Source: a virus
DNA: 64,000 bases
Strand: one strand, 5' to 3'
Virus record (IMG/VR): IMGVR_UViG_3300048999_000192
Location: 32,001 to 96,000 of that record
The notes below the pieces were generated by a model that was given only the letters and a program-made list of their open reading frames with translations, did no database searches and had not been told where the DNA came from. Position numbers and translations under genes: made by a program. Shown in pieces: positions 16,638 to 60,794 of this stretch; the first letter of the stretch is position 1; every line of letters begins with the position of its first letter.

Positions 16638-16653
16638 ACCAGGGGAGGTCCAG

Positions 16654-16809
16654 GTGGCGATCGTGCGCAAGGTGCGGGTCCGGGCACCGCGAGGCAAGGA
16701 GCCGTGTGCCGACTGCGCGGCCGACGGCTGCGAGACGTGCGACAAGACCGGCTTCCTCCCGGCCGGGTCGGCCCCGGCACGACGACGCTCCTGGAGGGCG
16801 GCTCGGTGA
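16654..16809 (+). CDS. Small Zn-finger protein (MAIVRKVR...CADC...CETC)
   Basis: GGAGG RBS, GTG start, GTGA overlap with the giant ORF; absent from the ORF track. Confidence 0.55.
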   Translation: MAIVRKVRVRAPRGKEPCADCAADGCETCDKTGFLPAGSAPARRRSWRAAR

Positions 16810-19800
16810 GCGACTTCGACTTCTCCCACGAGGAGATCAACACCGGAGGGACGAAGTACCCGACGAGGGTGCATCTGCGCGCCCACCACCCGGACGGCTC
16901 GGACGCCGGGTCGATGCACTACTTCCCGCCCAAGCGCAAGGGCAGCCCCGTCACGGTGGACACCCTGCCTCACGGTGACGACCGCGCCCGGGGAGCCGGG
17001 TCGGCCTTGCTGGATGAGATGGAGCGCCGCCACCCGGGCTCCCGCGTCGTCTACATGGACGAGCTCCACGAGAAGAACAAGCCGAAGCCGGGCGATCCGA
17101 ACTTCAACGCCAACCGCGACTACGGCCTGCCGACCGACTGGGAGCACCACTTCCCCAAGCTCCCCGGCCAGATCCACCGGGGGATGGGCGTCCGGCTGGA
17201 CAAGTACACCGCCGGGGACATCAACAGCGGGGACATGCCCTCGGGCGACCAGGCCAAGATCCTGCGCGGCGCGATCGAGAACGGCGGCCCCGGCGGCATG
17301 CACTGGTCGGCGGACGAGTCCAAGTCCCACCAGTTCGCTCACCGGAACGTCATCGACCCCCGTACGGACATCCCCGTGGTGCTGCACGCCCGTACGCCAG
17401 GGCTCAAGGACGTCGAGACGCGTCCTGACGTGCTGCGGAACAAGGGCGTCTGGCCGCACGACCACATCTCCGGCGACGCTGAGGTGCCGATCCGCAAGAA
17501 GCGGCCCGTCCACATCACCGGGATCTCCTGGCTCCCCGACGCCGACCACCCGGAGGCGGACGAGCACGGGTGGGTGCACCACACCTTCGCCGAGCCGCTG
17601 GTGCACAACGCGTCCCAGGGCTTGGCTCCAAGGATTCTGGGGAATACACTGGGTGAAAGCCACGAAAGGGGCCGTAATGAGCACCGAGCAGGGCGGGGGA
17701 AGCCTCGTCATCGTGTCCAGCCGGGAGCTGGCGACGATTCTGGCCGAGCGGGAGAGCTCGGGGGAGACGCCGGTGACGTGGGAGCAGGTCAAGCAGCAGA
17801 ACGGCCTGTGACCTTCCACCCTCAGGCGGCCAAGGAGTTCGGCAAGCTCGACGGGCAGACCAAGCGCCAGGTCCAGAAGACGATCGACGCGCTGTCCACC
17901 GGCCAGCCGACCCAGACCCACTACCTGGACGCCCCGCTGAAGGGCTGGCAGGGCACCAAGGCCTCGCGCGGCCACCGGATCGTCCACAAGGACACCGACG
18001 ACGGGGGCCTGCACATCGGCTACGTCGGCCTGCACGACTACGAGAAGGCCGAGCGCCGCCTGGGTGCCCGCGAGCCCTTCGAGTTCGAGTACGCCCGCAA
18101 CACGATCCCGGCCCCAAAGATGCCGGGCGACGTGTACGGCCAGGACATCGAGCCCCACGGCCGGTATATGACCGTGCGCTCCCAGCCGGGCAACTACGTC
18201 GACAACGAGCGCATGAAGTGGGAGTTCGGCCAGCACCGCTTCGAGAACCCGCTGCACCTGGACGCCGAGGGCTGGAAGCAGCACCTCTCCGACATGCACG
18301 GCGGCAAGACCGGCCGGGAGCTCTCGCAGGCCGTACGGGACGCCGGGCACGACGGCATCGTCACGCATGAGACCTGGCGCGGCCAGCGCACGCCTGGCGA
18401 GATCGTCGACCTGACCGGCTTCAAGCGGCGCAGCAGGCTGGCGCGTACGGCGGCCGACGATGATGACGACTACCGCATGCAGCACCGGCCGCCGGATGCC
18501 GACTTCGGGGCTCCGCATCACGATCTGACCCAGATCCTGCCGGACGACGTCTACACCCACCCGCAGTACTACGACCCGAACGGTCAGGGCGGTGACTGGC
18601 ACGACCGGAAGACGTTCCAGGACTCTTACCACCAGATCCAGCGGACGCGGGACAAGCCGGAAGCTAAGGTCAAGATCTACCGATCCCTCCCGGCCGAGTA
18701 CGCCCATCAGGGCTTCCGTCCCGGCGACTGGGTGAGCACCTCTCGCGACTATGCGATCGGGCACGGCAAGCACCACGCCGACTCCAAGCACGACTGGCCG
18801 GTCATCTCCACCTCGGTACCGGCCAAGCACCTGCAGACCAGCGGTGACGACCTGCGCGAGTGGGGCTACACCGGCCCGCACAAGGAGTGGCCCGCCGTCT
18901 CGCACAAGGGCGGCTATCACCAGGAGATCCGCCAGCGTGCCGACGGCACCATCGCGCCGGTGAAGCGCCGTGCGCCCAAGGAGGCCGCCGACCGGGCGCT
19001 GTTCACCGAGAAGCAGCCGGAGGACATGCGCAACCAGGGCGGCACCGACTGGGACCGCGTTCACCCCACCCTGCCGCCGACTGTGCACCGGGGCGCAGGC
19101 TTCCTGCTCTCGCCCAAGGACCACGCCTACGTCCATGACGCCTCGATCCCGGCGGCCGACCGCGCGCACCACCTGATCGGCCTGATGAAGGGCAAGGCCT
19201 ACTCCGGCGGCATCGGCAAGCACTGGAGTACCGACCCGTGGGTGGCGCATCACTTCGCGGCCAATGAGGCCGGGCGCAACAGCGACGCCTACGAGACCGA
19301 AGCGCCGGACTACAAGTGGGGCACCGACGATGACGGTGACCCGAAGTGGCGGCCCGCCACGATGGTCATGCTGCACGCCAAGACCCCGGCTCGTGCCGAC
19401 CTGGACGAGACCCACCACGACGTCTGGGGACGCGGCGTCGACTACGAGACCCACCACGAGAAGGAAACGCCGGTCATCGCCGGGCGGCCGGTCCACGTCA
19501 CCGGCATGTCCTGGGGTACCGAGGATGATCCCGCGCCGGATGATGACGGCGAGCCCCAGACGCTCTGGCAGCACCACGAGGACGACTACGACGGCCCGGC
19601 GGACCCGCCGCAGCACGCCTACCCGCATCGCCACACCTTCCCTGGCGGGCAGGCCCACACCGCGACCTGGGAGGACGAGACGTACGCGGGCTGGGAGCCG
19701 CACCAGCGCGCGGTCTCTGAGGCCCAGGAGGCCGTACGGGCCGAGCACCCGTACCTGACCGCGCCGCTGCCGGACTCCATGAGCGAGCGGGACGAGGAGC

Positions 19801-22604
19801 TCCGCAAGGTCCTGCGCCACGGCGGCCACCCGCGCGCCGACGACGCGTACGTCCACATCCACCGCGACCCGAACCGGAGCAGCTCCAACTCCGGCATCAG
19901 CCGGGAGACCGGCGCGCCCATCGTGAGCCTGCACCCGAGCCGGGCCGATCGCGGCACCATCACGCACGAGGCCGCGCACATCCTGAACGACCACGACCAC
20001 GGCAGGCAGGTCAACGAGGAGGCCCCGGACCACTACGTCCACGGGATCGGCTTCGCCCAGCACTACGCCCGCATGCTGCAGCCGTACGGGCCCCGCACGA
20101 CGCCGGGCGGCAACTACAAGCCCGGCGCGGGCGACCTGTTCCTGAACACCTACTACCGCTCGCTGGCCAAGCAGAACCGGGGCTTCGCCCACACCGCCGC
20201 CCGCGCCCTCCCGACCGACCGGATCTTCGGGCCGACGTACGGCCTGGACCATCGGCTGTTCAACGGCGAGGTGATCCGGCCGGAGGTGCGCAAGGCGGTC
20301 ATGGACCGGCTGGACGAGGTCTTCCGGGTGACCTCGGGCCTGCTCGACTGGTCCTCCTACATGCGCGTCTACCTGGCGGGCTCGGAGGCGAGCGAGTGGA
20401 CCAGCCCGACGCTGGAGGGCAACAACGACTTCGACACCTTGATCGGCGTCGACTACGACCAGGCGCGGGCGCACCGTGACGACAACTTCCTGACCATGAC
20501 CGACGGGGAGATCGACGACGTCCTGAACGACATCCTGCGCCAGTTCTACAACGACGAGGACTGGCAGGCCCCGTTCGGCGGCGTCTGGCACCTGACCGGC
20601 TACGTCAACCCGGACGCCTACGACATCCGGGACATCAAGCCGTACGCCGCCTATGACCTCTCGGACAGCCGCTGGGCAGTCAAGCCACCGCACCTGCCCT
20701 CCTGGGGCCCGGAGAGCTTCCCTGAGGGCCCCGCGCTCTGGCATGAGGCCTCGGCCGTCGCCGACTACATCGAGTCCATCCTGGAGCTCCCAGAGCCGTA
20801 CAGGACCCAGCAGGGCGGGGCGCTGTACGACCACCTGCACTCCGACCGGCACCGGGCGTTCGGGCCGAACGGCGAGGGCTGGTACGACCCGGGCAACGTC
20901 ATCGAGAAGTACCTGGACCAGCTCGGTCTGTGGGCCAAGCTCCTGCACCTGAAGAAGAACGCCGAGCACGGGGCCTACGACCCCGGTGAGCAGCCGATGC
21001 TGGAGGCGACGGCGCTGAGGGTCTATCACGGCACGTCGGCGGAGAACGCGGCCAAGATCAAGCACGAGGGCCTGACCTCACCGGTCTACGACGAGACCCA
21101 CAACACCCTGTCCGAGAGCCGGAGCCAGGCCCTGGAGCTGGCCCGGCGCCGGGGGCGTCAGGACCCGGCGGTCGTGGCCTTCGACGTGCCGGACGAGGCC
21201 GTCGGTGAGCACCTGCACCCGCCGTACGAGTACTGGGGTGGCAGCGGGGTGGCCAACACCTACGCCCTGCGCAAGCCGCTCCCGCCGCACTTCGTGGCCA
21301 CGGCCAAGGTGGCCAACTCCGACGGCGACGACTGGATGGAGTGCGACCAGGGGCACGAGCACTGGGGCACCAACGGGGCGGCCGGTCTGCTCCTCCGCCA
21401 CCACGACCCCGAGGACGGCAAGACCAGGTACCTGCTGCAGAAGCGCTCCCCGTGGGTCGACCACCCCGACACCTGGGGGATCCCCGGCGGCGCGCTCGGC
21501 CACGGGGAGCACCCGCTGAAGGGCGCGTTCCGCGAGGGGATCGAGGAGCTCGGCACCCTGCCGCCGGGCGTCCGCCGGAGCCACACCACCACCGACGACC
21601 ACGGCGGCTGGGCCTATCACACGGTGGTCGCCGACAGCCCGGAGCGCTTCGAACCCGGCGGCGGCCAGGACGACCATGAGAGCGACGGGCACGGCTGGTT
21701 CACGCACGGGGAGATGCAGGACCTGCCGCTGCACCCCGGCTTCGCCAAGAGCTGGGACCGCGTCCGCACGAGCCACCCGGGCAACAGCACGGTGCATGCG
21801 GCCAGCCACCACTGGATCGCCAACGAGCACAACCTGCGGGGGCCGGGGGAGCTCGAAGACGAGGACGAGGCCCCGGCGTACTTCCATGGTGACCGGGAGA
21901 GGCGCAACGGCCACTTCGATCGGGCCTGGGACCACCTGCGGCCGGAGCAGCACGAGAACATCCGGAAGAACCTGAAGGCGCTGTCCGCCAAGAAGATGAT
22001 CGTCGGCACCAACCATGCCGCCGAGATCTTCGACCACGGGCAGATGAAGACCCTGCACGAATACGATCCCCACGAGCGGACGGCGGGCTACCTCTTCGAC
22101 CGTAAGGCGCTGGAGCGCCACGTCCTCGGCGTGCCGGAGAGCACCAACCCCGACCAGCAGCCGATCTACGGGTCGATGCACGATGATCCGGTCGAGAACA
22201 ACTACGGCCGCTACAAGCTGGAGCTCAAGCCGCATGTGCGCGCCCGCGCCGGTGTCACCATGGGGGACTCGCTCAACGAGAAGCTCCGGGGTTACCACAT
22301 CGACCATGTGCCGCACCTCAGCCATGCGGAGATGAGGGAGATGGTCGAGCCCACCGAGCTGATCAACCTGGCCGAGAACGAGAAGCCCAAGTCCTACATG
22401 GAATTCCAGGTCCACGGCGGGATCGGGGTCCATGACATCGCGAAGCTGCACGTCCATGAGGATCACGGCAGGCCGCTGACAGAGAAGGATCACCAGGTGA
22501 TGGACAAGGCCCGCGATGCGGGGGTCGAGGTGGTCCACCACAAGCCGGACCCGAACTTCGGCCTGACGGATGATCAGGTCGCGACGCTGAGGGGGCACCG
22601 ATGA
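16806..22604 (+). CDS. Giant multidomain (polyvalent) effector protein: GNAT, ART-like domains, RelE, HExxH peptidase, nucleotidyltransferase, Nudix, DUF3626-like
   Basis: RARGAGSALL; HRG..HWS..xxE twice; RelE-like FHPQAAKEFGKLD; NPL..GHDGIV; YR..PGDWVSTS; HEAAH; LAGS..DFD; YHGTS; Nudix box GALGHGEHPLKGAFREGIEELG; PIYG..YG..GDS..EFQVHG. Confidence 0.85.
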   Translation: MSDFDFSHEEINTGGTKYPTRVHLRAHHPDGSDAGSMHYFPPKRKGSPVTVDTLPHGDDRARGAGSALLDEMERRHPGSRVVYMDELHEKNKPKPGDPNFNANRDYGLPTDWEHHFPKLPGQIHRGMGVRLDKYTAGDINSGDMPSGDQAKILRGAIENGGPGGMHWSADESKSHQFAHRNVIDPRTDIPVVLHARTPGLKDVETRPDVLRNKGVWPHDHISGDAEVPIRKKRPVHITGISWLPDADHPEADEHGWVHHTFAEPLVHNASQGLAPRILGNTLGESHERGRNEHRAGRGKPRHRVQPGAGDDSGRAGELGGDAGDVGAGQAAERPVTFHPQAAKEFGKLDGQTKRQVQKTIDALSTGQPTQTHYLDAPLKGWQGTKASRGHRIVHKDTDDGGLHIGYVGLHDYEKAERRLGAREPFEFEYARNTIPAPKMPGDVYGQDIEPHGRYMTVRSQPGNYVDNERMKWEFGQHRFENPLHLDAEGWKQHLSDMHGGKTGRELSQAVRDAGHDGIVTHETWRGQRTPGEIVDLTGFKRRSRLARTAADDDDDYRMQHRPPDADFGAPHHDLTQILPDDVYTHPQYYDPNGQGGDWHDRKTFQDSYHQIQRTRDKPEAKVKIYRSLPAEYAHQGFRPGDWVSTSRDYAIGHGKHHADSKHDWPVISTSVPAKHLQTSGDDLREWGYTGPHKEWPAVSHKGGYHQEIRQRADGTIAPVKRRAPKEAADRALFTEKQPEDMRNQGGTDWDRVHPTLPPTVHRGAGFLLSPKDHAYVHDASIPAADRAHHLIGLMKGKAYSGGIGKHWSTDPWVAHHFAANEAGRNSDAYETEAPDYKWGTDDDGDPKWRPATMVMLHAKTPARADLDETHHDVWGRGVDYETHHEKETPVIAGRPVHVTGMSWGTEDDPAPDDDGEPQTLWQHHEDDYDGPADPPQHAYPHRHTFPGGQAHTATWEDETYAGWEPHQRAVSEAQEAVRAEHPYLTAPLPDSMSERDEELRKVLRHGGHPRADDAYVHIHRDPNRSSSNSGISRETGAPIVSLHPSRADRGTITHEAAHILNDHDHGRQVNEEAPDHYVHGIGFAQHYARMLQPYGPRTTPGGNYKPGAGDLFLNTYYRSLAKQNRGFAHTAARALPTDRIFGPTYGLDHRLFNGEVIRPEVRKAVMDRLDEVFRVTSGLLDWSSYMRVYLAGSEASEWTSPTLEGNNDFDTLIGVDYDQARAHRDDNFLTMTDGEIDDVLNDILRQFYNDEDWQAPFGGVWHLTGYVNPDAYDIRDIKPYAAYDLSDSRWAVKPPHLPSWGPESFPEGPALWHEASAVADYIESILELPEPYRTQQGGALYDHLHSDRHRAFGPNGEGWYDPGNVIEKYLDQLGLWAKLLHLKKNAEHGAYDPGEQPMLEATALRVYHGTSAENAAKIKHEGLTSPVYDETHNTLSESRSQALELARRRGRQDPAVVAFDVPDEAVGEHLHPPYEYWGGSGVANTYALRKPLPPHFVATAKVANSDGDDWMECDQGHEHWGTNGAAGLLLRHHDPEDGKTRYLLQKRSPWVDHPDTWGIPGGALGHGEHPLKGAFREGIEELGTLPPGVRRSHTTTDDHGGWAYHTVVADSPERFEPGGGQDDHESDGHGWFTHGEMQDLPLHPGFAKSWDRVRTSHPGNSTVHAASHHWIANEHNLRGPGELEDEDEAPAYFHGDRERRNGHFDRAWDHLRPEQHENIRKNLKALSAKKMIVGTNHAAEIFDHGQMKTLHEYDPHERTAGYLFDRKALERHVLGVPESTNPDQQPIYGSMHDDPVENNYGRYKLELKPHVRARAGVTMGDSLNEKLRGYHIDHVPHLSHAEMREMVEPTELINLAENEKPKSYMEFQVHGGIGVHDIAKLHVHEDHGRPLTEKDHQVMDKARDAGVEVVHHKPDPNFGLTDDQVATLRGHR
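17622..17650 (+). promoter_or_regulatory. Internal promoter inside the giant ORF
   Basis: TTGGCT-N17(CCAAGGATTCTGGGGAA)-TACACT, same family as the intergenic promoters. Confidence 0.7.
17677..17811 (+). CDS. Overprinted 44-aa putative antitoxin
   Basis: GAAAGGGG RBS, ATG, C-terminal PVTWEQVKQQNGL typical of addiction-module antitoxins, GTGA overlap with the RelE domain start. Confidence 0.7.
   Translation: MSTEQGGGSLVIVSSRELATILAERESSGETPVTWEQVKQQNGL
17808..18065 (+). other. RelE/ParE-family toxin domain within the giant ORF (possible internal GTG start at 17808)
   Basis: VTFHPQAAKEFGKLDGQTKRQVQKTIDAL...HYLDAPLKGW...HRIVH. Confidence 0.75.
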
Positions 22605-24028
22605 GGATGGATCTCGGCGGCGGCCGGTTCGCTGACGTCCCGGACGGGGCCAGCCATCGCAGCCTGATCAAGGTGATCAGCCCGGACGGCGTCCACGAGG
22701 TGTCCTGGGGCGGTCTGCAGGGCCTGTCCAACGGGGAGCTACCCGCCCGCCGGACGCCCAAGACGGCCGACTACCACCTGCAGCACCGGGCGCCGGACGA
22801 GGAGTCCGGCAAGCCCCTGCACCACTACGAGGGCGGCGACGGGGATGAGCACGTCGACATCTACCGGGCCGTCCCTCACGATGTCCGGCACATCGAGCAC
22901 GACTCGTGGATCACCACCAACCCCGAGTACGCCCACCAGCACGCCCAGCAGTACGACGGGTCGGAATCCTGGCCGGTGCTGCATGCCAGCGTGCCCAAGA
23001 AGCACCTGTACTGGGACGAGAACGACCCGAATGAGCACGGCTACCAGGGGCCGGACATTCCCGAGGCCGACGTGCACGACGAGGAACACGGCGTCATCTC
23101 ACGGGACGAGCACGATGAGGCGCACCCGCAGCCGAGCGAGGAGGAGGCCGAGCGCGGCGGAGAGCACTTCCACGGCACCGCCGTGCACCTGCCACCGAGG
23201 GCGCACCAGATCGTCCACAACCCGAAGAAGCCCATGGACGTACGGGCGCGCGTGCTACTGGGTCACCTGCCCAAGGAGGTCCAGCACAACTCCGGGGGCC
23301 CGTGGGAAGAGGACGCCGACGACGCCGAGCTGGAGTCGATGAGCCAGGCCGACGACATGGGCCCGCACCCTGAGCACGGCACCCCACCGACGCAGGTCGT
23401 GGTGCACGGCAGTCCGTACGGCAGCAAACCGCACGGCATCTCCTGGGCGGACTCGGCCAAGGAGCCGCTGGTCTTCCACCGCGACTACGCGCACCACACG
23501 TTCGGCGGCAAGACGGCCAAGACTGCGGTGGACGCCACTGGCTCGATGATGGTCGCCTTCGTCCCGCCGAAGAACGTGATCGACCACCTCGTGCAGGAGG
23601 GCGGCGAGACGGCCGACGAGCTCCACATCACCCTGCTCTACCTGGGCAAGGAGTCGGCGTTCACGCCCAAGCAGGTCGCCCAGCTCCCCACCCTGGTGAG
23701 CCAGTGGGCCAAGGGCCAGCACCCGATGCAGGCCAACACCCAGGGTGCGGGCACGTTCATCAGCAAGGACAACCACAAGAACAGCCACGTCATGTGGGCC
23801 TCGGTGAACATCCCCGGGGTGACGCGGGCCCACGACGGCCTGGTGGACTTCCTGCGCGGCCACGGCCTGACAATCAAGGAGGATTTCGGGTACATCCCGC
23901 ATATAACCCTGAAGTATGACAAGTATCACGTCCGGTTCCTGCCCAAGGTCGAGCCCATGACCTGGGACATCACGCAGGTCTGGTTCTGCCGGGGCGATGA
24001 GTGGACACCGTACGTGCTAGGACGTTGA
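22601..24028 (+). CDS. Second multidomain effector: two ART-like domains plus C-terminal 2H phosphoesterase
   Basis: Paralogous DYHLQHRAP..IYRAVP..WITT..YA domain; two HITL motifs (LHITLLYLG, PHITLKY). Confidence 0.8.
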   Translation: MRMDLGGGRFADVPDGASHRSLIKVISPDGVHEVSWGGLQGLSNGELPARRTPKTADYHLQHRAPDEESGKPLHHYEGGDGDEHVDIYRAVPHDVRHIEHDSWITTNPEYAHQHAQQYDGSESWPVLHASVPKKHLYWDENDPNEHGYQGPDIPEADVHDEEHGVISRDEHDEAHPQPSEEEAERGGEHFHGTAVHLPPRAHQIVHNPKKPMDVRARVLLGHLPKEVQHNSGGPWEEDADDAELESMSQADDMGPHPEHGTPPTQVVVHGSPYGSKPHGISWADSAKEPLVFHRDYAHHTFGGKTAKTAVDATGSMMVAFVPPKNVIDHLVQEGGETADELHITLLYLGKESAFTPKQVAQLPTLVSQWAKGQHPMQANTQGAGTFISKDNHKNSHVMWASVNIPGVTRAHDGLVDFLRGHGLTIKEDFGYIPHITLKYDKYHVRFLPKVEPMTWDITQVWFCRGDEWTPYVLGR

Positions 24029-55387: not shown

Positions 55388-57337
55388 ATGGGCGCAGAAG
55401 CGGTCAGGCGGCTACGCACCGCCGAGGGCCCAGAGCCCGGCGACGAGCCGACCGCTGAACCCATGCGCGCACAGCGCCGTGGACGCTCTAAGCCCTCCCG
55501 GGAGGACCTGAGGGTCCGGAACCGCACGCGACGCTCGTACGAGACGCCTCAGGCCCGTACGGCCGCCCTCCGCTGCCTCGCCTGCGGCTGCACCGGTCCC
55601 GCCGCCGACCGCTGTGCCGCCTGCGGCTCACTGGCCGTCCAGGCCAACTGGGAGACCGCCCTCGGCCACGGCACCGAGCGCCAGACCGACTGGGACGATG
55701 TCACCCAGGGCTGGAACATGGATCACGCCCGTATCCACCGGGCGATCACACTGCACCCCAGCTCCGACGTCTACGACAAGATCGAGGACCCCGACGTCCC
55801 GGACGAGGAGAAGGCCCAGCACCTGCTGAGCCACCTGCAGAACGGCGGGCGCTCCCTCGGTCGGCACTGGTCGACGGACCTGGACCACGCCAAGCGCGTC
55901 GCGCGGGACGAGGGCTGGTCGGCGATCGGCAACAACTCCTCCGACGACGAGGAGAACGAGTACAAGCTCCCGCTGTCGGTCATGGTGCACGCCAAGTTCC
56001 CCGAGCGGCACCACATCGAGACCGACCCCAGCGTGCTGGAGGAGCACCACGTCACCCCGTGGGGCGGCTCGGAGCACTTCAGCGACGAGTCCGAGGTCCC
56101 GCTGAAGCCGGACGCCAAGGTGCACGTGACGGGGCTGTCCTGGTCGACCAAGACCAACCCGCACCCCAGCGAGTGGACGACCCACCGTTACGACAAGGAC
56201 ACCGAGGCGCACGAGCAGGCGCAGGAGTCCGCGCGCCAGGAGCGCATGGACAACCTGAAGAAGAGCTTCAAGCACGAGGGCAAGCTGGCCAGCGGTGCGT
56301 TCCACGCCCAGCTCCCTCCAGATGCGCACGCGCGGGTGGTGGATGAGAGCCGCCCTGCCGGTGAGAGGGCCAAAGAGCTGCTCGACCACCTGGGCCAGGG
56401 CCACGGCAGCATCCACTGGAGCGAGGGCGCGACCAGCATGCCGCTGGGTCAGGCCAAGATGAGCGCCAACGCGCTGCACCGCAAGACGGGATCGCCAGCG
56501 ATCAGCGGGGAGCTGCGGGGGGTGACCCCCGAGGGCACGACCAAGTACGACGCGGAGCACGGCCTGTCGGGGATCAACCTGCCCATCCACGCGATGCGGT
56601 GGCAGGAGAGCGCACCCGAGCACCCGTACAAGTCGACCGAGCACGAGCACGAGTTTGGGAAGCCGATGACCCATCAGGCTCTGGTACTCGACTGTGAGGC
56701 CTGCGGCCACATGAGCCGTACGGCCTCCTCACGCTGCCGCGCCTGCGGGTCGCTCGCGCTCAAGACGGCCACCGTGCTGATGACCCAGATCGAGCGGGCC
56801 AACCCCGGCGACCAGATGCGCACCCCGCAGGGGCAGTCGGTGCACGTCAAGAAGATCCGCCCGCACGAGACCGACAACACCAAGGTCTACGTGGACACCG
56901 ACCTGGGCACCGCCGTGATGAGCCGTGGCACCGAGGTCAACCTCACCCAGGGGGAGCGCCAGCAGGAGCTCCCTAACTCGGGCAACCCCAGCGGCAACGC
57001 GGGCATGCTGCCCGGCGCCGGGCGCACACCGACGGGAGAGGGTGACGCCGGAGGCGGCGGCTACGCGGCACCACGCTGCCCGCGCGATGGCACCAAGATG
57101 GTCCAGCGCGGGAACACCTGGATCTGCCCCATCGACAACACCACCGCACCACTGTCCTCGGCTCCCGCCGGGATGCAGCCGACCAACCGCGAGACGGGCC
57201 AGATCCTGACCCGCTCGCCAGGACGCAAGCCCCCGCAGACACACCTGTGGGCCACCTATCACACAGCCGGACAGCCTCCGGCGATCGTCCGGCGGGCACG
57301 GCAGGTGCTCGACACCATGGAGGAGATTCGATCGTGA
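55388..57337 (+). CDS. Multidomain protein: Zn ribbons, ART-like domains paralogous to those of the giant ORF, and others
   Basis: IHRA..GRHWSTD..HAKFP..DESEVP..VHVTGLSW; CxxC..CxxC twice; CPRDG..CPID. Confidence 0.75.
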   Translation: MGAEAVRRLRTAEGPEPGDEPTAEPMRAQRRGRSKPSREDLRVRNRTRRSYETPQARTAALRCLACGCTGPAADRCAACGSLAVQANWETALGHGTERQTDWDDVTQGWNMDHARIHRAITLHPSSDVYDKIEDPDVPDEEKAQHLLSHLQNGGRSLGRHWSTDLDHAKRVARDEGWSAIGNNSSDDEENEYKLPLSVMVHAKFPERHHIETDPSVLEEHHVTPWGGSEHFSDESEVPLKPDAKVHVTGLSWSTKTNPHPSEWTTHRYDKDTEAHEQAQESARQERMDNLKKSFKHEGKLASGAFHAQLPPDAHARVVDESRPAGERAKELLDHLGQGHGSIHWSEGATSMPLGQAKMSANALHRKTGSPAISGELRGVTPEGTTKYDAEHGLSGINLPIHAMRWQESAPEHPYKSTEHEHEFGKPMTHQALVLDCEACGHMSRTASSRCRACGSLALKTATVLMTQIERANPGDQMRTPQGQSVHVKKIRPHETDNTKVYVDTDLGTAVMSRGTEVNLTQGERQQELPNSGNPSGNAGMLPGAGRTPTGEGDAGGGGYAAPRCPRDGTKMVQRGNTWICPIDNTTAPLSSAPAGMQPTNRETGQILTRSPGRKPPQTHLWATYHTAGQPPAIVRRARQVLDTMEEIRS

Positions 57338-59523
57338 ACAAGCGCGCAAGCCTTGTCCAGGCGATCACGGCGGCGGGCACCTTCCAGGAGCAGGCCGCCC
57401 TCGTCGCACGACTGGCCGAGCACGACCGCCTCGCGGTCGAGGCGGCCCGCCAGGACCGCGAGTGGGGCACGGCCGGGACCATCGTCGAGCAGACGATGAC
57501 TCCGGTCGCGGTGCACGAGCGCCACACCGCCGCCACCGACTGGATCGGCGACCTGGACACCTCGGGTGGCAACTACCACCAGGAGATCTGCGCGGAGGCC
57601 AGCCTCTGGTACGGCCGGGTCAACGCGATGGTCAAGGGCGACGGCGAGGAGTTCGCCGAGCAGGCGCGCGGCATGGCGCGGCGCACCGCCGGGAAGTACG
57701 GGGAGTCGGCCGACGCCGCCGCCCAGACCTTCCTGGACTACGTCGCGTTCCTGCGCTCCAAGGAGGCGGCCAGCGGCCTGCCCCAGATCGACCAGGAGTT
57801 CGACCCCAAGGACAACCCGGCACCGACCCCGCTGCCGACCGAGACCTTCCCGACCTTCGGGCCGGACGTCCACCCGATCAACGAGGGCGTGGACGGCCCG
57901 CGCACCGGCTCGCCGCTGATCGACGAGATCGAGGGCTACGGCGCCCCGTACGGTCAGGGCGAGGAGAAGCCGGGTGGCCACTCCACCTCCATGGACGAGT
58001 CCGGCAGCTACGCCGAGGTGCCGCTGGGCGCGCCGGGGCAGATCCCGACCGAGGAGTACAGCAAGACCTCGGCGCTGATCGACGCACCGACCGTGGCCAT
58101 CGGCTACGAGATGAACCTGGACGACTACCGGGCCGAGCTGCAGCGTCAGGCGGCGGCCCAGGCCGGTGGTGCCGCCCCTTTCGTCCGTGAGGCCAGGTCG
58201 GCCGAGGACGATGCCCGTCGCCAGGCGTACGGGGACGACGAGACCGAGGATGACAGCCCGGCCTCCAAGGAGGACGACGCGCGCCGTCAGGCGTATGAGA
58301 AGGAGGCCGCGTCCAGCCTGCCGACTCAGCACCAGGTGATCGACCCCAACAACATGCCGACGCCGGAGGCCGACACCTTCAACACCGAGGTGGCCTTCCC
58401 GCTGAACCCGGCCTTCGACAAGCAGGTCAAGAGCGAGGAGCTGCCGCCCGCCGAGAACGTGGCGCAGGCCAAGCGCCGGGCGTTCGTGGCCGGTCTGCTG
58501 GCGCGGGAGCCGAAGACCTGGTCCCCGGTCGAGCGTGCCGAGGTGGCCGACTTCCTGTCCAAGGCGGCCGGGCTCACCAAGCAGGCGGATGAGTTCTCGG
58601 CACCTCACGATGTGCCAGCTAGCGAGACGCCGGTTGGCAACTCGGCCAACACCACCCCGCAGCCTTCCTCTGGCTCCTACGCCAAGGGGCAGACCGACGG
58701 GGCGGCCGACCGTGCCGCCGGTGAGGCCCCGACCTTCTCGGACGCCTCCTCGGGCGCGAGCGACTACGTCAAGGGCTACAGCGAGGCCTACAGCGGCGCG
58801 CAGGGCGCCTCTGTGCCCCAGGACGTACCGGTCTCGATGGGCGGCGACAACGGGCAGATGCAGAACGCTGCGGACTCCCAGAACGCCGCGCAGACGGCCA
58901 TGGCGGCCAAGACGGCGACCATCAAGAGCCCGTTCAGCGGCCTGGTGCGCGAGGCGAGCCTGAGCACGCCGGACTTCGTCAAGGGCTTCAACTTCGCCCG
59001 CAACTGGAAGCCCGGCCAGCGGCTGGTCGCCACCGGCTCGGCGGAGTTCGAGGAGGGCCTGTACGCGGGCATCACCGAGCGCCCGAAGCTGCAGGCCTCC
59101 TGGGTCGTGGCGCACCGTAAGGCGGCCAAGGCCCTGAACAAGCCCGAGCTGATGAAGCGCATCAGCATCCACGAGCGCGTCACCCGCCGCTTCGCCCGCA
59201 AGAACCCCAGCGCTCTGGTGCGGGGCTTCTACGTGCAGGCGGGGACGTCCACCGACCTGCTGACCATGGGCCCTGGCGCGAGCCCGGACCCGATGGGCGG
59301 CACGCCGATCAATGGGCCCGGCACCCCGCCGCCCATGGAAGGCGGCACCGACCCGGCGCGGCCGGGTGGGCCCGCGATGTACAACGGCGCGCCGCCGTAC
59401 GGCTCGCCGGTCGCTCCGGACCCGGTGATGGGCCAGCAGGGCACGCCGGACGCCGCGCAGCGCCAGGCGGCGTTCCGCACGGTCGTCCAGGCCGAGCTCA
59501 AGAAGATGCAGGAGGCATCGTGA
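57334..59523 (+). CDS. Putative virion/head-associated protein with internal repeats
   Basis: GGAGGAG RBS + GTG; repeated KEAAS(G/S)LP..DP..TP..FP and EDDARRQAY; Pro/Gly-rich. Confidence 0.55.
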   Translation: MNKRASLVQAITAAGTFQEQAALVARLAEHDRLAVEAARQDREWGTAGTIVEQTMTPVAVHERHTAATDWIGDLDTSGGNYHQEICAEASLWYGRVNAMVKGDGEEFAEQARGMARRTAGKYGESADAAAQTFLDYVAFLRSKEAASGLPQIDQEFDPKDNPAPTPLPTETFPTFGPDVHPINEGVDGPRTGSPLIDEIEGYGAPYGQGEEKPGGHSTSMDESGSYAEVPLGAPGQIPTEEYSKTSALIDAPTVAIGYEMNLDDYRAELQRQAAAQAGGAAPFVREARSAEDDARRQAYGDDETEDDSPASKEDDARRQAYEKEAASSLPTQHQVIDPNNMPTPEADTFNTEVAFPLNPAFDKQVKSEELPPAENVAQAKRRAFVAGLLAREPKTWSPVERAEVADFLSKAAGLTKQADEFSAPHDVPASETPVGNSANTTPQPSSGSYAKGQTDGAADRAAGEAPTFSDASSGASDYVKGYSEAYSGAQGASVPQDVPVSMGGDNGQMQNAADSQNAAQTAMAAKTATIKSPFSGLVREASLSTPDFVKGFNFARNWKPGQRLVATGSAEFEEGLYAGITERPKLQASWVVAHRKAAKALNKPELMKRISIHERVTRRFARKNPSALVRGFYVQAGTSTDLLTMGPGASPDPMGGTPINGPGTPPPMEGGTDPARPGGPAMYNGAPPYGSPVAPDPVMGQQGTPDAAQRQAAFRTVVQAELKKMQEAS

Positions 59524-60794
59524 CGACCGATCAGTTCGCGTCCCTGTGGACCGAGGCCTCCCGGGACGTGGAGCGCGAGAACGCGCTGCGTGCCGAGGCC
59601 CTGGCCAGTGCCAAGCTGGGCGCGGTTTGGCCCTTCTTCGCCCTGGCGCAGTCCAAGCCGGAGCTGGAGCATCGCAAGGCGCTGGCACGTGAGTCCCTGG
59701 AGGAGATCGCGGCCAGCACCGGCCTGCCGCTGGCCCGCATCGCCGAGATCATCGACCAGCACTTCACCCTGCTCGCCGAGGCCCGCATGTCCAAGCAGGC
59801 CGAGGAAGAGGAGGGCGGCCAGTGGGAGGTCGTCGACAAGGCTACGGACGCAAAGGTCGCAGGCCCTTTCGATGATCGGGAGAAGGCACAAGAGGCCATC
59901 GCGGACAACGACTCCGGGCTGCCTTCTTCCGAGCTGAAGATCGTGCCGGTGAACGAGTCCGAGGACGAGGGCGAGGAGAAAGAGGCCAGCCTCCGTCACC
60001 AGGCCATCCCCGAGGGCGAGAACATCCTGGCCGAGACGGTCAACGACGCCTCTGGTGCCTTCCCGGCCTCGGTCGAGAAGCTGCCCGAGCACGATGAGGG
60101 CCCGGACGCCAACATCCCGCCGGAGGCCTACTCCACGGTCAGCATGCCCCAGCCGGGCGACTCGGGTGCGAGCAACCCGCAGTCCATGGCGGTCAAGATC
60201 GACATGAGCGTGGCCGAGGCGCGCAAGATCATGCAGCTCGCACTCACCGGCAGTCGTAAGACCGCCGTCGGCGAGTACGTCGACCCGTCCCAGCAGCAGG
60301 GTCAGCAGGCCCCGATGCCGGACGCGCCGGAGTCGGCCACCGGGATGGACACCGGCATGCCGCCGGAGGGCCAGCCGACTCCGGGCCAGGATCCGGGTGG
60401 CCAGGTCGCCACCGACCCCTACCCGATGACCACCAAGCCCGCCCAGCAGCCTGGCGCGCCGGGCGGCGGCGGGGACATGGGCGGGGACACCGAGGGGGAC
60501 GGCGGAGACCCCGTCTCGGACCAGATCGACCAGGTCACCTCGGCGATTCGCAGGGACAACCCCGGGGTCAGCACGTCGGTCGCCAGGCGGGTCGCCCGCC
60601 AGGCCGTGGCCAAGATGCTGACGGCCGCCGGGAGCGACGGGATCGACTACACCCACCCGACGATCCCCAAGGCCGCCCCGGCGGGCGGCGAGGAGGACGA
60701 GGACGAGAGCCTGGCCGGTCACGCCGCCGAGACGGCCGGAGCCGGTGCCGCCCTGAAGGTCCTGCCCAAGGTTCTTCCGCTACTCGCCCTGTAG
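59520..60794 (+). CDS. Putative virion/scaffold-like acidic protein
   Basis: GGAGG RBS, helical N-terminus, acidic low-complexity remainder, KQA/KEA/KTA motifs. Confidence 0.5.
   Translation: MTTDQFASLWTEASRDVERENALRAEALASAKLGAVWPFFALAQSKPELEHRKALARESLEEIAASTGLPLARIAEIIDQHFTLLAEARMSKQAEEEEGGQWEVVDKATDAKVAGPFDDREKAQEAIADNDSGLPSSELKIVPVNESEDEGEEKEASLRHQAIPEGENILAETVNDASGAFPASVEKLPEHDEGPDANIPPEAYSTVSMPQPGDSGASNPQSMAVKIDMSVAEARKIMQLALTGSRKTAVGEYVDPSQQQGQQAPMPDAPESATGMDTGMPPEGQPTPGQDPGGQVATDPYPMTTKPAQQPGAPGGGGDMGGDTEGDGGDPVSDQIDQVTSAIRRDNPGVSTSVARRVARQAVAKMLTAAGSDGIDYTHPTIPKAAPAGGEEDEDESLAGHAAETAGAGAALKVLPKVLPLLAL

Follow-up and report, generated by a model that had tools for sequence, protein, structure and literature searches.

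An alanine-ending tag at the domain joints of giant multi-enzyme actinophage proteins, a candidate signal for head-protease cleavage

Background

Whether a phage protein assembled from many small enzyme-like modules acts as one chain or is cut into separate enzymes is the question raised by two adjoining open reading frames (ORFs) in the virus record IMGVR_UViG_3300048999_000192. The window analysed here comprises 64,000 nucleotides, bases 32001-96000 of this 155,098-bp record, which is rated complete by CheckV. The record represents a soil phage, an actinophage-type myovirus with a G+C content of ~67% whose genes include those for the portal (genome 100473-102671), the major capsid protein (genome 115641-116636) and a tail sheath. 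The first ORF, designated q1, encodes 1932 amino acids from a GTG start (window 16806-22604), and the second, q2, encodes 475 amino acids (22601-24028). Positions refer to the window unless marked as genome positions. An initial annotation of this DNA had proposed that both ORFs are polyproteins that are packaged into the prohead and cut at short [K/R/H]-x-A motifs into about a dozen enzymes.

Phage chains of this kind have been described as polyvalent proteins, in which unrelated conflict-type domains are combined in one chain and shuffled to an extreme degree (Iyer, Burroughs, Anand, de Souza and Aravind 2017, PMC5512222). In that work the chains were proposed to be delivered with the DNA and their domains to be released by peptidases, in analogy to the polyproteins of RNA viruses; an inter-domain cleavage motif was not described and the word 'linker' does not occur (PMC5512222). 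Processing was ascribed mainly to embedded zincin peptidases, with assemblin-like peptidases noted at C-termini only (PMC5512222). Judged from their sequences, q1 and q2 belong to the phage polyvalent effector proteins, with 11 and 4 small enzyme-like modules, respectively (Table 1).

Tag statistics at domain edges

Domain boundaries were defined independently of any motif, from BLAST breakpoints against 68 giant homologs recovered by protein search (1.1-3.3 thousand amino acids, mostly on ~150-kb contigs). The domain order of these homologs is shuffled relative to q1, and each of them aligns piecewise with just 6-41% of the query. Breakpoints cluster at residues 268-270, 411-443, 543-556, 725-727, 947-973, 1116-1130, 1380-1404, 1506 and 1648-1664 of q1 and at residues 56 and 307 of q2. 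All ten motifs that the initial annotation had listed as domain boundaries in the two ORFs were recovered, and each lies in one of the independent breakpoint zones. The paralogous edges quoted there are likewise real, namely HHTF..HNA, RHTF..HTA, HHTFGGKTA and HEFGKPMTHQA at the ends of domains, and RTA/ADDDDDYRMQHRPP and KTA/DYHLQHRAP at their starts.

Short motifs ending in alanine are common in G+C-rich genomes, and the pattern could reflect chance combined with a choice of those motifs that happen to stand at boundaries. For q1 by itself this caution was justified: [KRH]-x-A occurs 31 times against ~30 expected from composition, and the junction zones hold 12 of the 31 against 7.0 expected, a marginal excess (p=0.03). 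The family-level signal is much stronger. In the pooled set of 76 proteins (138,000 residues), 218 of 379 [KRH]-T-A motifs (58%) fall within breakpoint zones that make up 15.4% of residues, as do 133 of 186 KTA. No tripeptide of the family is more over-represented than KTA, which has 186 occurrences vs 25.5 expected from composition and 56 under a first-order Markov model (z=17), whereas reversed or substituted control motifs (A-x-[KRH], [KRH]-x-G, [DE]-x-A and others) remain at ~1.0-fold in the zones. Among 351 domain edges with distinct neighbours, 32% have [KRH][TEQ]A within 12 residues, compared to a background of 5.7%. The same pattern recurs in an independent protein set, described below, and chance is refuted at the family level; we retain only a vanishingly small probability for it.

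The residue after the tag is A, S, M or V in the family. The comparative enrichment therefore points to a code narrower than the permissive [K/R/H]-x-A first put forward: a tag is indeed conserved at the joints, but it reads [K>R>H]-T-A-[A/S], where the middle position also admits E or Q. Individual edges differ in how regularly they are marked. The C-terminal edge of D2 carries [KRH]-x-A in 34 of 38 distinct contexts, the N-terminal edge of D5 carries the strict motif in 17 of 38, and the nucleotidyltransferase domain is directly preceded by [KRH][TEQ]A in ~45 homologs irrespective of the domain upstream. At the D1/D2 edge the tag is never present, so D1 and D2 form one unit. Tags are not enriched in cellular homologs from Streptomyces and Nonomuraea (5 vs 10.6 expected). 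Altogether, the tag is very likely a functional signal of domain junctions.

Selection on the tag acts on the protein and not on the DNA: its first position can be K, R or H, and the relative L007 encodes it with varying codons. In the genome studied here, 13 of 25 occurrences of R-T-A are encoded by CGT-ACG-GCC, with CGT accounting for just 9% of Arg codons. The 9-mer CGTACGGCC is found in 19 copies on the plus strand and 11 on the minus strand vs ~2 expected per strand, and is over-represented out of frame too; examples lie at 55556, 56717 and 64797 (genome 87556, 88717 and 96797), and at genome 68870 and 114525 two copies make the 12-bp palindrome GGCCGTACGGCC. A role of the tag as a recombination word at the DNA level was rejected on account of the differing codons in L007, and the bias of CGTACGGCC stays unexplained.

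Cassette exchange and linkers

The tag moves together with domain cassettes. In two close relatives (P0071 and P0072), a whole GNAT domain is located between GGKTA and RRTA at exactly the position of the double tag KTAKTA of q2; the double tag is a cassette scar. At the first joint of q2, P0077 has a ParB cassette between ARTA and RRTA, and P0075 has an ARTA-FRRTA scar there. Comparison with L009, the closest relative with available DNA, delimits window positions 16803-17609 (D1-D2) as an insertion ending at the HNA tag. Each cassette appears to carry its own tag at its C-terminal end.

Structural models place the tags in predicted flexible linkers. In the model of q2, built from nine sequences, confidence is lowest at the two tag sites (residues 41-60 and 301-310); these sites separate four folded parts, the last of which matches 2H phosphoesterases. 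For q1 the AlphaFold model of residues 955-1932 is poor, with a mean predicted local distance difference test score (pLDDT) of 48; the zincin, the nucleotidyltransferase and the joint between them are readable, with a confidence trough at HTA 1129.

These observations would also suit chains that are never cut, in which the tag follows a convention for linkers or marks the limits of exchangeable cassettes and the intact protein acts as a multi-enzyme, like the N4 virion RNA polymerase or ArdC. The tag would then persist since joining modules at short conserved ends preserves the reading frame and the folding of recombinants. Cassette gains and losses do stop at the tag, some polyvalent proteins are delivered unprocessed (PMC5512222), and the CGT-ACG-GCC bias hints at shared descent or a constraint on the DNA. 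However, the tag codons vary in relatives, and a degenerate 9-base word is too short for guiding recombination. A pure linker also leaves unexplained the preference for A or S after the tag and several features described in the next section, namely tag enrichment in the scaffold-like tails of head-protease proteins, N-terminal leaders ending in T-A, and look-alike tails at C-termini. We consider uncut chains unlikely.

Head-maturation protease

The initial annotation had placed the prohead protease outside the window, and it is indeed found there: a head-maturation protease domain forms the N-terminus of a 1550-amino-acid protein (Table 1). It is 41-48% identical by tblastn to annotated prohead proteases of Rhodococcus phage E3, Gordonia phages and Bxz1/I3-type mycobacteriophages. 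All 30 sequences compared share His82, His100, Ser140 and His166. Searches of the domain against PDB sequences gave no match. The protease domain is followed by K-T-A/A at residue 380 and by cargo and acidic scaffold-like regions, and R-T-A/A lies ~50 residues before the end of the protein.

The protease family comprises 2,366 clusters that start with this domain, and the best 150 of the 2,366 were analysed. Across their 142 C-terminal extensions, over-representation reaches 3.5-fold for KTA and 3.3-fold for RTA; A or S is enriched 3-fold as the next residue, and reversed motifs score just 0.6-fold. Fused NUDIX domains, with identities to that of q1 reaching 60%, are present in 11 of the 150 protease proteins, and a D5-like ('YRMQHR') domain in 3 of the 150. 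In the cultured phage E3 (HM114277), [KRH][TEQ]A occurs 9 times vs 2.0 expected in the protease gp77 and 6 vs 1.3 in gp76, while the capsid, portal and tail proteins have almost none. Phage I3 shows a mild excess in gp102 and gp103 (3 vs 1.1 and 3 vs 1.3), which is not significant alone. The tag is thus common to the effector chains and to protease and scaffold-like proteins. Since it also marks the head-protease protein, separate enzymes are probably released from the chains by cutting; cleavage at the tag is likely.

The proteins of this family (P0082-P0229) range from ~250 to 2,400 amino acids, and the protease domain is followed by variable cargo such as DUF7178, zinc ribbons and NUDIX. 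Full-length members have a conserved R-x-A-P-S-[LM]-A ~30 residues ahead of an acidic C-terminus ending in ...D-x-L-F-[LDE].

A second element of similar form is present in relatives of q1. In P0008-P0034, [MVIL]-L-E-Y-F-(K)-T-A-A occurs at 18 N-termini, as MLEYFTA/A leaders, and at 30 internal joints. A look-alike (e.g. ...DYFGVAA) ends four residues before 13 C-termini of giant homologs. The LEYF-TA element is not present in the phage studied here. Other lineages have MGLGRR...[DEQ]TA leaders.

The cutting enzyme could instead be the zincin-like module of q1 (HEAAH) or a host protease, acting in the cytoplasm or after injection. The HExxH module type of q1 is the commonest hub of polyvalent proteins (PMC5512222), a homologous module is found in 22 of the 76 family members, and the placement of q1 among non-structural genes suits an action in the cytoplasm. 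Against this, the tag is equally enriched in members with the zincin module (117 vs 34 expected) and in the 26 members without any HExxH (107 vs 34), and q2 and the 649-, 758- and 424-amino-acid proteins introduced below have no such module. The equal enrichment with and without HExxH, together with the lack of enrichment in cellular homologs, indicates a trans-acting enzyme of the phage. In the independent set the tag tracks a family of serine head proteases, and searches of the genome with the Pfam models of Prp and ClpP found no such protease encoded. Cutting by the zincin or a host enzyme is therefore improbable in our view. Host signal peptidase (A-x-A) was also considered as the cutter and rejected, as a basic residue stands three before the cut and signal peptides are absent.

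Tag-rich proteins of the genome

Eight proteins of this genome account for the tag excess: q1, q2, the 649-, 758-, 424-, 1551- and 1022-amino-acid proteins and the 1550-amino-acid protease protein. Together they contain 32 [KRH]TA vs 7.2 expected, compared to 21 vs 26 in the remaining proteome. The three proteins at 55388-60794, which the initial annotation had described as putative virion proteins punctuated by the same motifs, jointly have 24 [KRH][TEQ]A vs 5.8 expected. The 649- and 758-amino-acid proteins have R-T-A inside their first 12 residues, and the 1022-amino-acid protein, encoded after the portal, begins with MRMQRTA.

Two of these proteins repeat modules of the effector chains. 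In the 649-amino-acid protein, CxxC zinc-ribbon pairs bracket the HRG...HWS copies, and the ribbons are flanked by RTA and KTA tags. In the 1551-amino-acid protein, the Arr-ms match is to a rifampin ADP-ribosyltransferase-like domain, and a ParB-like part and an HRG...HWS domain are split by RTA, RQA and KEA tags.

Proposed mechanism

The reading that best accommodates these results is that the head protease cuts the tag inside the capsid, in chains that are packaged. The tag would be the recognition site of the head-maturation serine protease, with an assemblin-like cut after Ala. Along with the other tag-rich proteins of the head module, the chains would be packaged into the prohead, be cut to separate enzymes, and be ejected with the DNA. 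As the best single reading we hold its chances to be evenly balanced.

A number of points weigh against it. Apart from the marginal junction excess in q1 alone, the strict tag is found at only about one third to one half of the joints, and [KRH]-T-A outside the junction zones numbers 161 vs ~95 expected, with no depletion in domain cores. Portal, capsid protein and sheath have no [KRH]TA, which for capsid and portal is unlike T4 and phiKZ, and the set of eight tag-rich proteins was picked partly after motif counts had been seen. The start of q1 (MSDFDF) has no N-terminal leader, and q2, in which a 53-residue N-terminal domain precedes the first tag, lacks a capsid-targeting leader. Both are encoded 46 kb from the portal, which lies downstream, and q1 is located beside recombination-type genes. 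In the protease protein the conserved R-T-A near the C-terminus precedes Pro, a poor residue after a cut site. The Pfam S77/S78 models PF03420 and PF04586 gave no match to the protease at E<=1, and literature searches found no report of cleavage, packaging or injection for this phage or its relatives.

A broader version would extend capsid processing of the chains to a widespread group of soil actinophages. These phages would run a capsid polyprotein system of tagged cassettes cut by the head protease, with shared tails that serve as an address and with co-evolution between the tag dialect and the protease. Released enzymes would end in ...[K/R/H]-T-A in this phage and in ...L-E-Y-F-T-A in relatives. 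As the relatives mimic this tail at natural C-termini, it could be a working address, for head retention or ejection. The full system, taken together, is unlikely.

Modules of the two chains

The modules of q1 and q2, the tags between them and the other tag-rich proteins are listed in Table 1. Single modules searched against Pfam and NCBIfam gave mostly no match or matches below threshold. NUDIX and the 2H phosphoesterase are the secure identities, while the assignments as RelE/StbE, Tpt1-like ADP-ribosyltransferase lobe, zincin, nucleotidyltransferase and GNAT-like are weak. The earlier estimate of about a dozen enzymes was therefore right in recognizing multi-enzyme chains of the polyvalent type but went too far in number, with only NUDIX and 2H passing family thresholds. 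For the 2H domain of q2, the PF02834 score of 22.7 bits is slightly below the 23.3 cut-off; Foldseek matches it to 1iuh, 5h7e and 5ldm (E 3e-5 to 8e-4). For D7, both the SprT-like match (E=0.14) and the Foldseek match to the abylysin fold (probability 0.91 but E=0.19) are weak, as are the fold matches of D8 to AAD(9), Pol lambda and CdnD/E; D1 has a weak match only to GNAT. D8-type domains occur as stand-alone genes in Streptomyces phages.

The commonest module is the repeated HRG...HWS...HHTF domain, which belongs to no known family; no stand-alone homologs of 124-396 amino acids were found, and in the protein atlas it corresponds to unnamed viral clusters only. The list of boundaries in the initial annotation requires two amendments, in addition to the tagless D1/D2 edge: the edge after D8 is more likely marked by KNA than by LEA-TA, and the HRA at residue 293 had been missed. 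The classes of the 2H, NUDIX and nucleotidyltransferase modules act on nucleotide signals, which makes them candidates for a role against host defences.

Table 1. Modules, junction tags and tag-rich proteins, in window coordinates unless marked as genome
Feature	Position	Strand	Remarks
q1 giant ORF	16806..22604	+	1932 amino acids, GTG start, 11 modules, GC3 (G+C at third codon positions) 0.92
D1+D2, GNAT-like N-terminal part and 'HRG...HWS...HHTF' domain	16806..17603	+	single unit, single cassette
HNA junction tag, residue 267	17604..17612	+	coincides with 3' end of D1-D2 cassette
Read-through linker, residues 270-334	17613..17807	+	homologous to intergenic stretch and small ORF in L009 (blastn)
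44-codon ORF, other frame	17677..17811	+	TGA stop overlaps GTG starting RelE-like domain
HRA tag, residue 293	17682-17690	+	within read-through linker
D3 RelE/StbE-like domain (weak)	17808..18065	+	TIGR02385 E=0.004, 17.6 bits vs cut-off 27.9
D4 module	18066..18443	+	defined by breakpoints; no family match in Pfam or NCBIfam
RTA junction tag, residue 547	18444..18452	+	followed by ADDDDDYRMQHRPP
D5 'YRMQHR' domain	18453..18977	+	phrog_2579 E=1.4e-34; PHROG 2579 is annotated as ParB C-terminal domain
KEA junction tag, residue 725	18978..18986	+	at breakpoint cluster
D6, second HRG...HWS domain	19023..19655	+	self-match of D2
HTA junction tag, residue 951	19656..19664	+	at breakpoint cluster
D7 zincin-like metallopeptidase module (weak)	19668..20189	+	HEAAH (HExxH) at 19965-19979
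HTA junction tag, residue 1129	20190..20198	+	pLDDT 23-24
D8 nucleotidyltransferase, polymerase-beta fold (weak)	20199..20954	+	motifs AGSEAS and DFDTLIGVD
KNA, likely real tag after D8, residues 1384-1386	20955..20963	+	KTA at this place in homologs
LEATA, boundary of initial annotation, residue 1399	21000..21014	+	end peak at residue 1404
D9 Tpt1/KptA-like fragment (ADP-ribosyltransferase-type lobe, RNA 2'-phosphotransferase; weak)	21012..21305	+	NF002013 E=2.2e-5, partial; PF01885 E=0.043
KVA junction tag, residue 1501	21306..21314	+	near breakpoint cluster 1506
D10 NUDIX hydrolase	21315..21794	+	PF00293 E=2.8e-10, 40.8 bits vs gathering cut-off 21.1, P0001 residues 1571-1679
HAA junction tag, residue 1664	21795..21803	+	weakest of the set; end peak 1656, start peak 1683
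D11 module	21804..22601	+	phrog_8314 E=4e-7
q2	22601..24028	+	small beta-rich N-terminal domain, D5-like domain, HRG-like domain, 2H phosphoesterase
KTA junction tag, residue 54 of q2	22760..22768	+	lowest pLDDT in q2 model; then DYHLQHRAP
KTAKTA double tag, residues 304-309 of q2	23510..23527	+	pLDDT 29; cassette scar
2H phosphoesterase domain of q2	23528..24025	+	two HxT motifs (HITL twice); phrog_2659 E=1.3e-15
649-amino-acid protein	55388..57337	+	two HRG...HWS domains, CxxC ribbons; 5 [KRH]TA sites, one at residue 10
758-amino-acid low-complexity acidic protein	57247..59523	+	13 [KRH][TEQ]A vs 2.4 expected; start codon uncertain
424-amino-acid low-complexity acidic protein	59520..60794	+	5 [KRH][TEQ]A vs 1.2 expected
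1551-amino-acid protein	genome 95654-100309 (begins window 63654)		directly upstream of portal; ART-PolyVal and Arr-ms matches
1550-amino-acid protein, N-terminal head-maturation protease domain	genome 109968-114620, outside window		phrog_18299 E=5e-22

Read-through stretch and neighbouring elements

A single joint of q1 departs from the coding pattern of the remainder. GC3 in the q1 frame falls from ~0.95 to ~0.5 across residues 267-333, and the matching DNA in L009 is intergenic, with a 52-codon ORF called as a gene. As the initial annotation had missed, q1 is a mosaic whose first 269 codons are a cassette absent from its closest relative. The 44-codon ORF within the stretch looks like an antitoxin gene in the layout of a toxin-antitoxin pair, given the overlap of its TGA with the GTG of the RelE-like domain, and homologs of q1 carry the name RelE in the annotation of the Joint Genome Institute. 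The q1 frame itself has no stop codon, so read-through must occur. As the small ORF ends on the RelE-like GTG and the closest relatives P0004, P0005 and P0007 begin their protein at D3 (VTFHPQ), an internal second start is possible and a second product from it is plausible.

On this basis the giant ORF might be partly an artefact of annotation, with several translation units fused by the rarity of stops at 67% G+C and with internal starts, not proteolysis, separating the products. The loss of coding GC3 over residues 270-333, the match to an intergenic stretch and small ORF, and the start of relatives where the 44-codon ORF ends all fit this explanation. The evidence is confined to one joint, however: GC3 stays at 0.83-1.0 over the RTA joint to residue 666, the last profiled, it equals 0.92 for the whole ORF, and ribosomes starting at 16806 meet no stop. 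More distant homologs also have D2 and the RelE-like domain in one protein. We regard an artefact as highly unlikely.

Upstream of q1, an apparent CxxC-rich ORF of ~51 codons occupies 16653-16809, and its TGA overlaps the GTG start of q1 (GTGA), which suggests translational coupling; in L009 no gene is called at the matching place. A repeated promoter-like element, ATCATTTTAAAATC followed after ~20 bases by ..CTCCCC.. AATCCTTGGAGTAGAGTGG, precedes ~10 genes (window 25112, 26604, 29657, 43764, 46516, 47732 and 62145; genome 16658, 23730 and 107553). It was not found ahead of q1, and the expression class of q1 is not deducible from it. A partial reversed copy is located within q1 at 17624 and is translated as the conserved peptide ..APRILGNTL... 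No near-identical DNA turned up in the phage collection, and scanning viral contigs for peptide patterns gave no matches.

Comparison with known systems

If cutting does take place at the tag, tailed phages would follow a polyprotein strategy of the RNA-virus type, in which a variable set of enzymes (NUDIX, 2H phosphoesterase, ADP-ribosyltransferase-like, nucleotidyltransferase and RelE-like) accompanies the DNA into the host. Capsid cargo proteins would then be recognizable by a simple sequence code, and many unannotated giant ORFs of actinophages could be read as lists of separate effectors with predictable mature ends. The processing idea of Iyer et al. would become directly testable in cultured relatives such as E3, the Gordonia phages Pupper and Skog, and Bxz1/I3-type mycobacteriophages.

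Several head-maturation systems share parts of the proposed arrangement. In T4 the head protease gp21 recognizes L/I-x-E. Herpesvirus assemblin is a Ser-His-His protease that cuts (V/L)-x-Ala/Ser both where its own domain ends and close to the C-terminus of the scaffold fused to it. The layout of the 1550-amino-acid protein resembles an assemblin precursor, with invariant His, Ser and His in identical order. The two differ in that no similarity of sequence is detectable, the phage tag has a basic and not an aliphatic residue at the third position before the cut, and the phage protein has ~700 residues of extra modules.

Head proteases are known to cut packaged cargo at tripeptide codes in T4 (gp21), phiKZ (gp175) and SPN3US (gp245), the last with the code A-x-E (PMC10052503, PMC5694885). 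The proposed system would be like these in that the protease cuts itself, scaffold and cargo (in T4, IPI-III and Alt), short leaders are removed and the cargo is ejected. Their codes end in Glu, whereas the present one ends in Ala, and capsid and portal are tagless here. Their substrates lose a propeptide, while here one chain would give up to a dozen enzymes.

The closest arrangement among described phages is that of E3 gp68-gp79, where a large protein annotated as structural, the portal, LigT, a LysM-like protein, an 895-amino-acid prohead protease and the capsid protein follow in the same order, and gp77, gp76 and gp68 show an excess of [KR][TEQ]A that the capsid, portal and tail proteins lack. 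E3 differs in having no q1-type multi-enzyme ORF of 1900 amino acids; a D5-like domain is found in its gp206. The large pre-portal protein gp70 (HM114277, 29160-32319) is annotated as structural, its entry being composed of two pieces with a pseudogene flag, and LigT is the stand-alone gene gp74 between portal and protease. Among the accessible papers none was found to report cleavage sites for E3; literature searches likewise found no report of cleavage sites for actinophage heads or of such a junction code.

The polyvalent proteins resemble q1, q2 and their homologs in combining 2-15 unrelated domains per chain and in the rapid shuffling of their domains. The repertoire is common as well, with zincin, polymerase-beta nucleotidyltransferase, ADP-ribosyltransferase, GNAT, ParB, 2H and NUDIX domains; homologs of q1 carry GNAT, ParBc, Arr-ms, ART-PolyVal, SprT and cupin domains. 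In contrast to the class as described by Iyer et al., a defined tag stands at the joints here, and it tracks an N-terminal head protease encoded by another gene. The new element is thus an Ala-ending code at the joints of multi-enzyme chains that moves with their cassettes and is shared with the protease/scaffold protein in a large lineage of actinophages.

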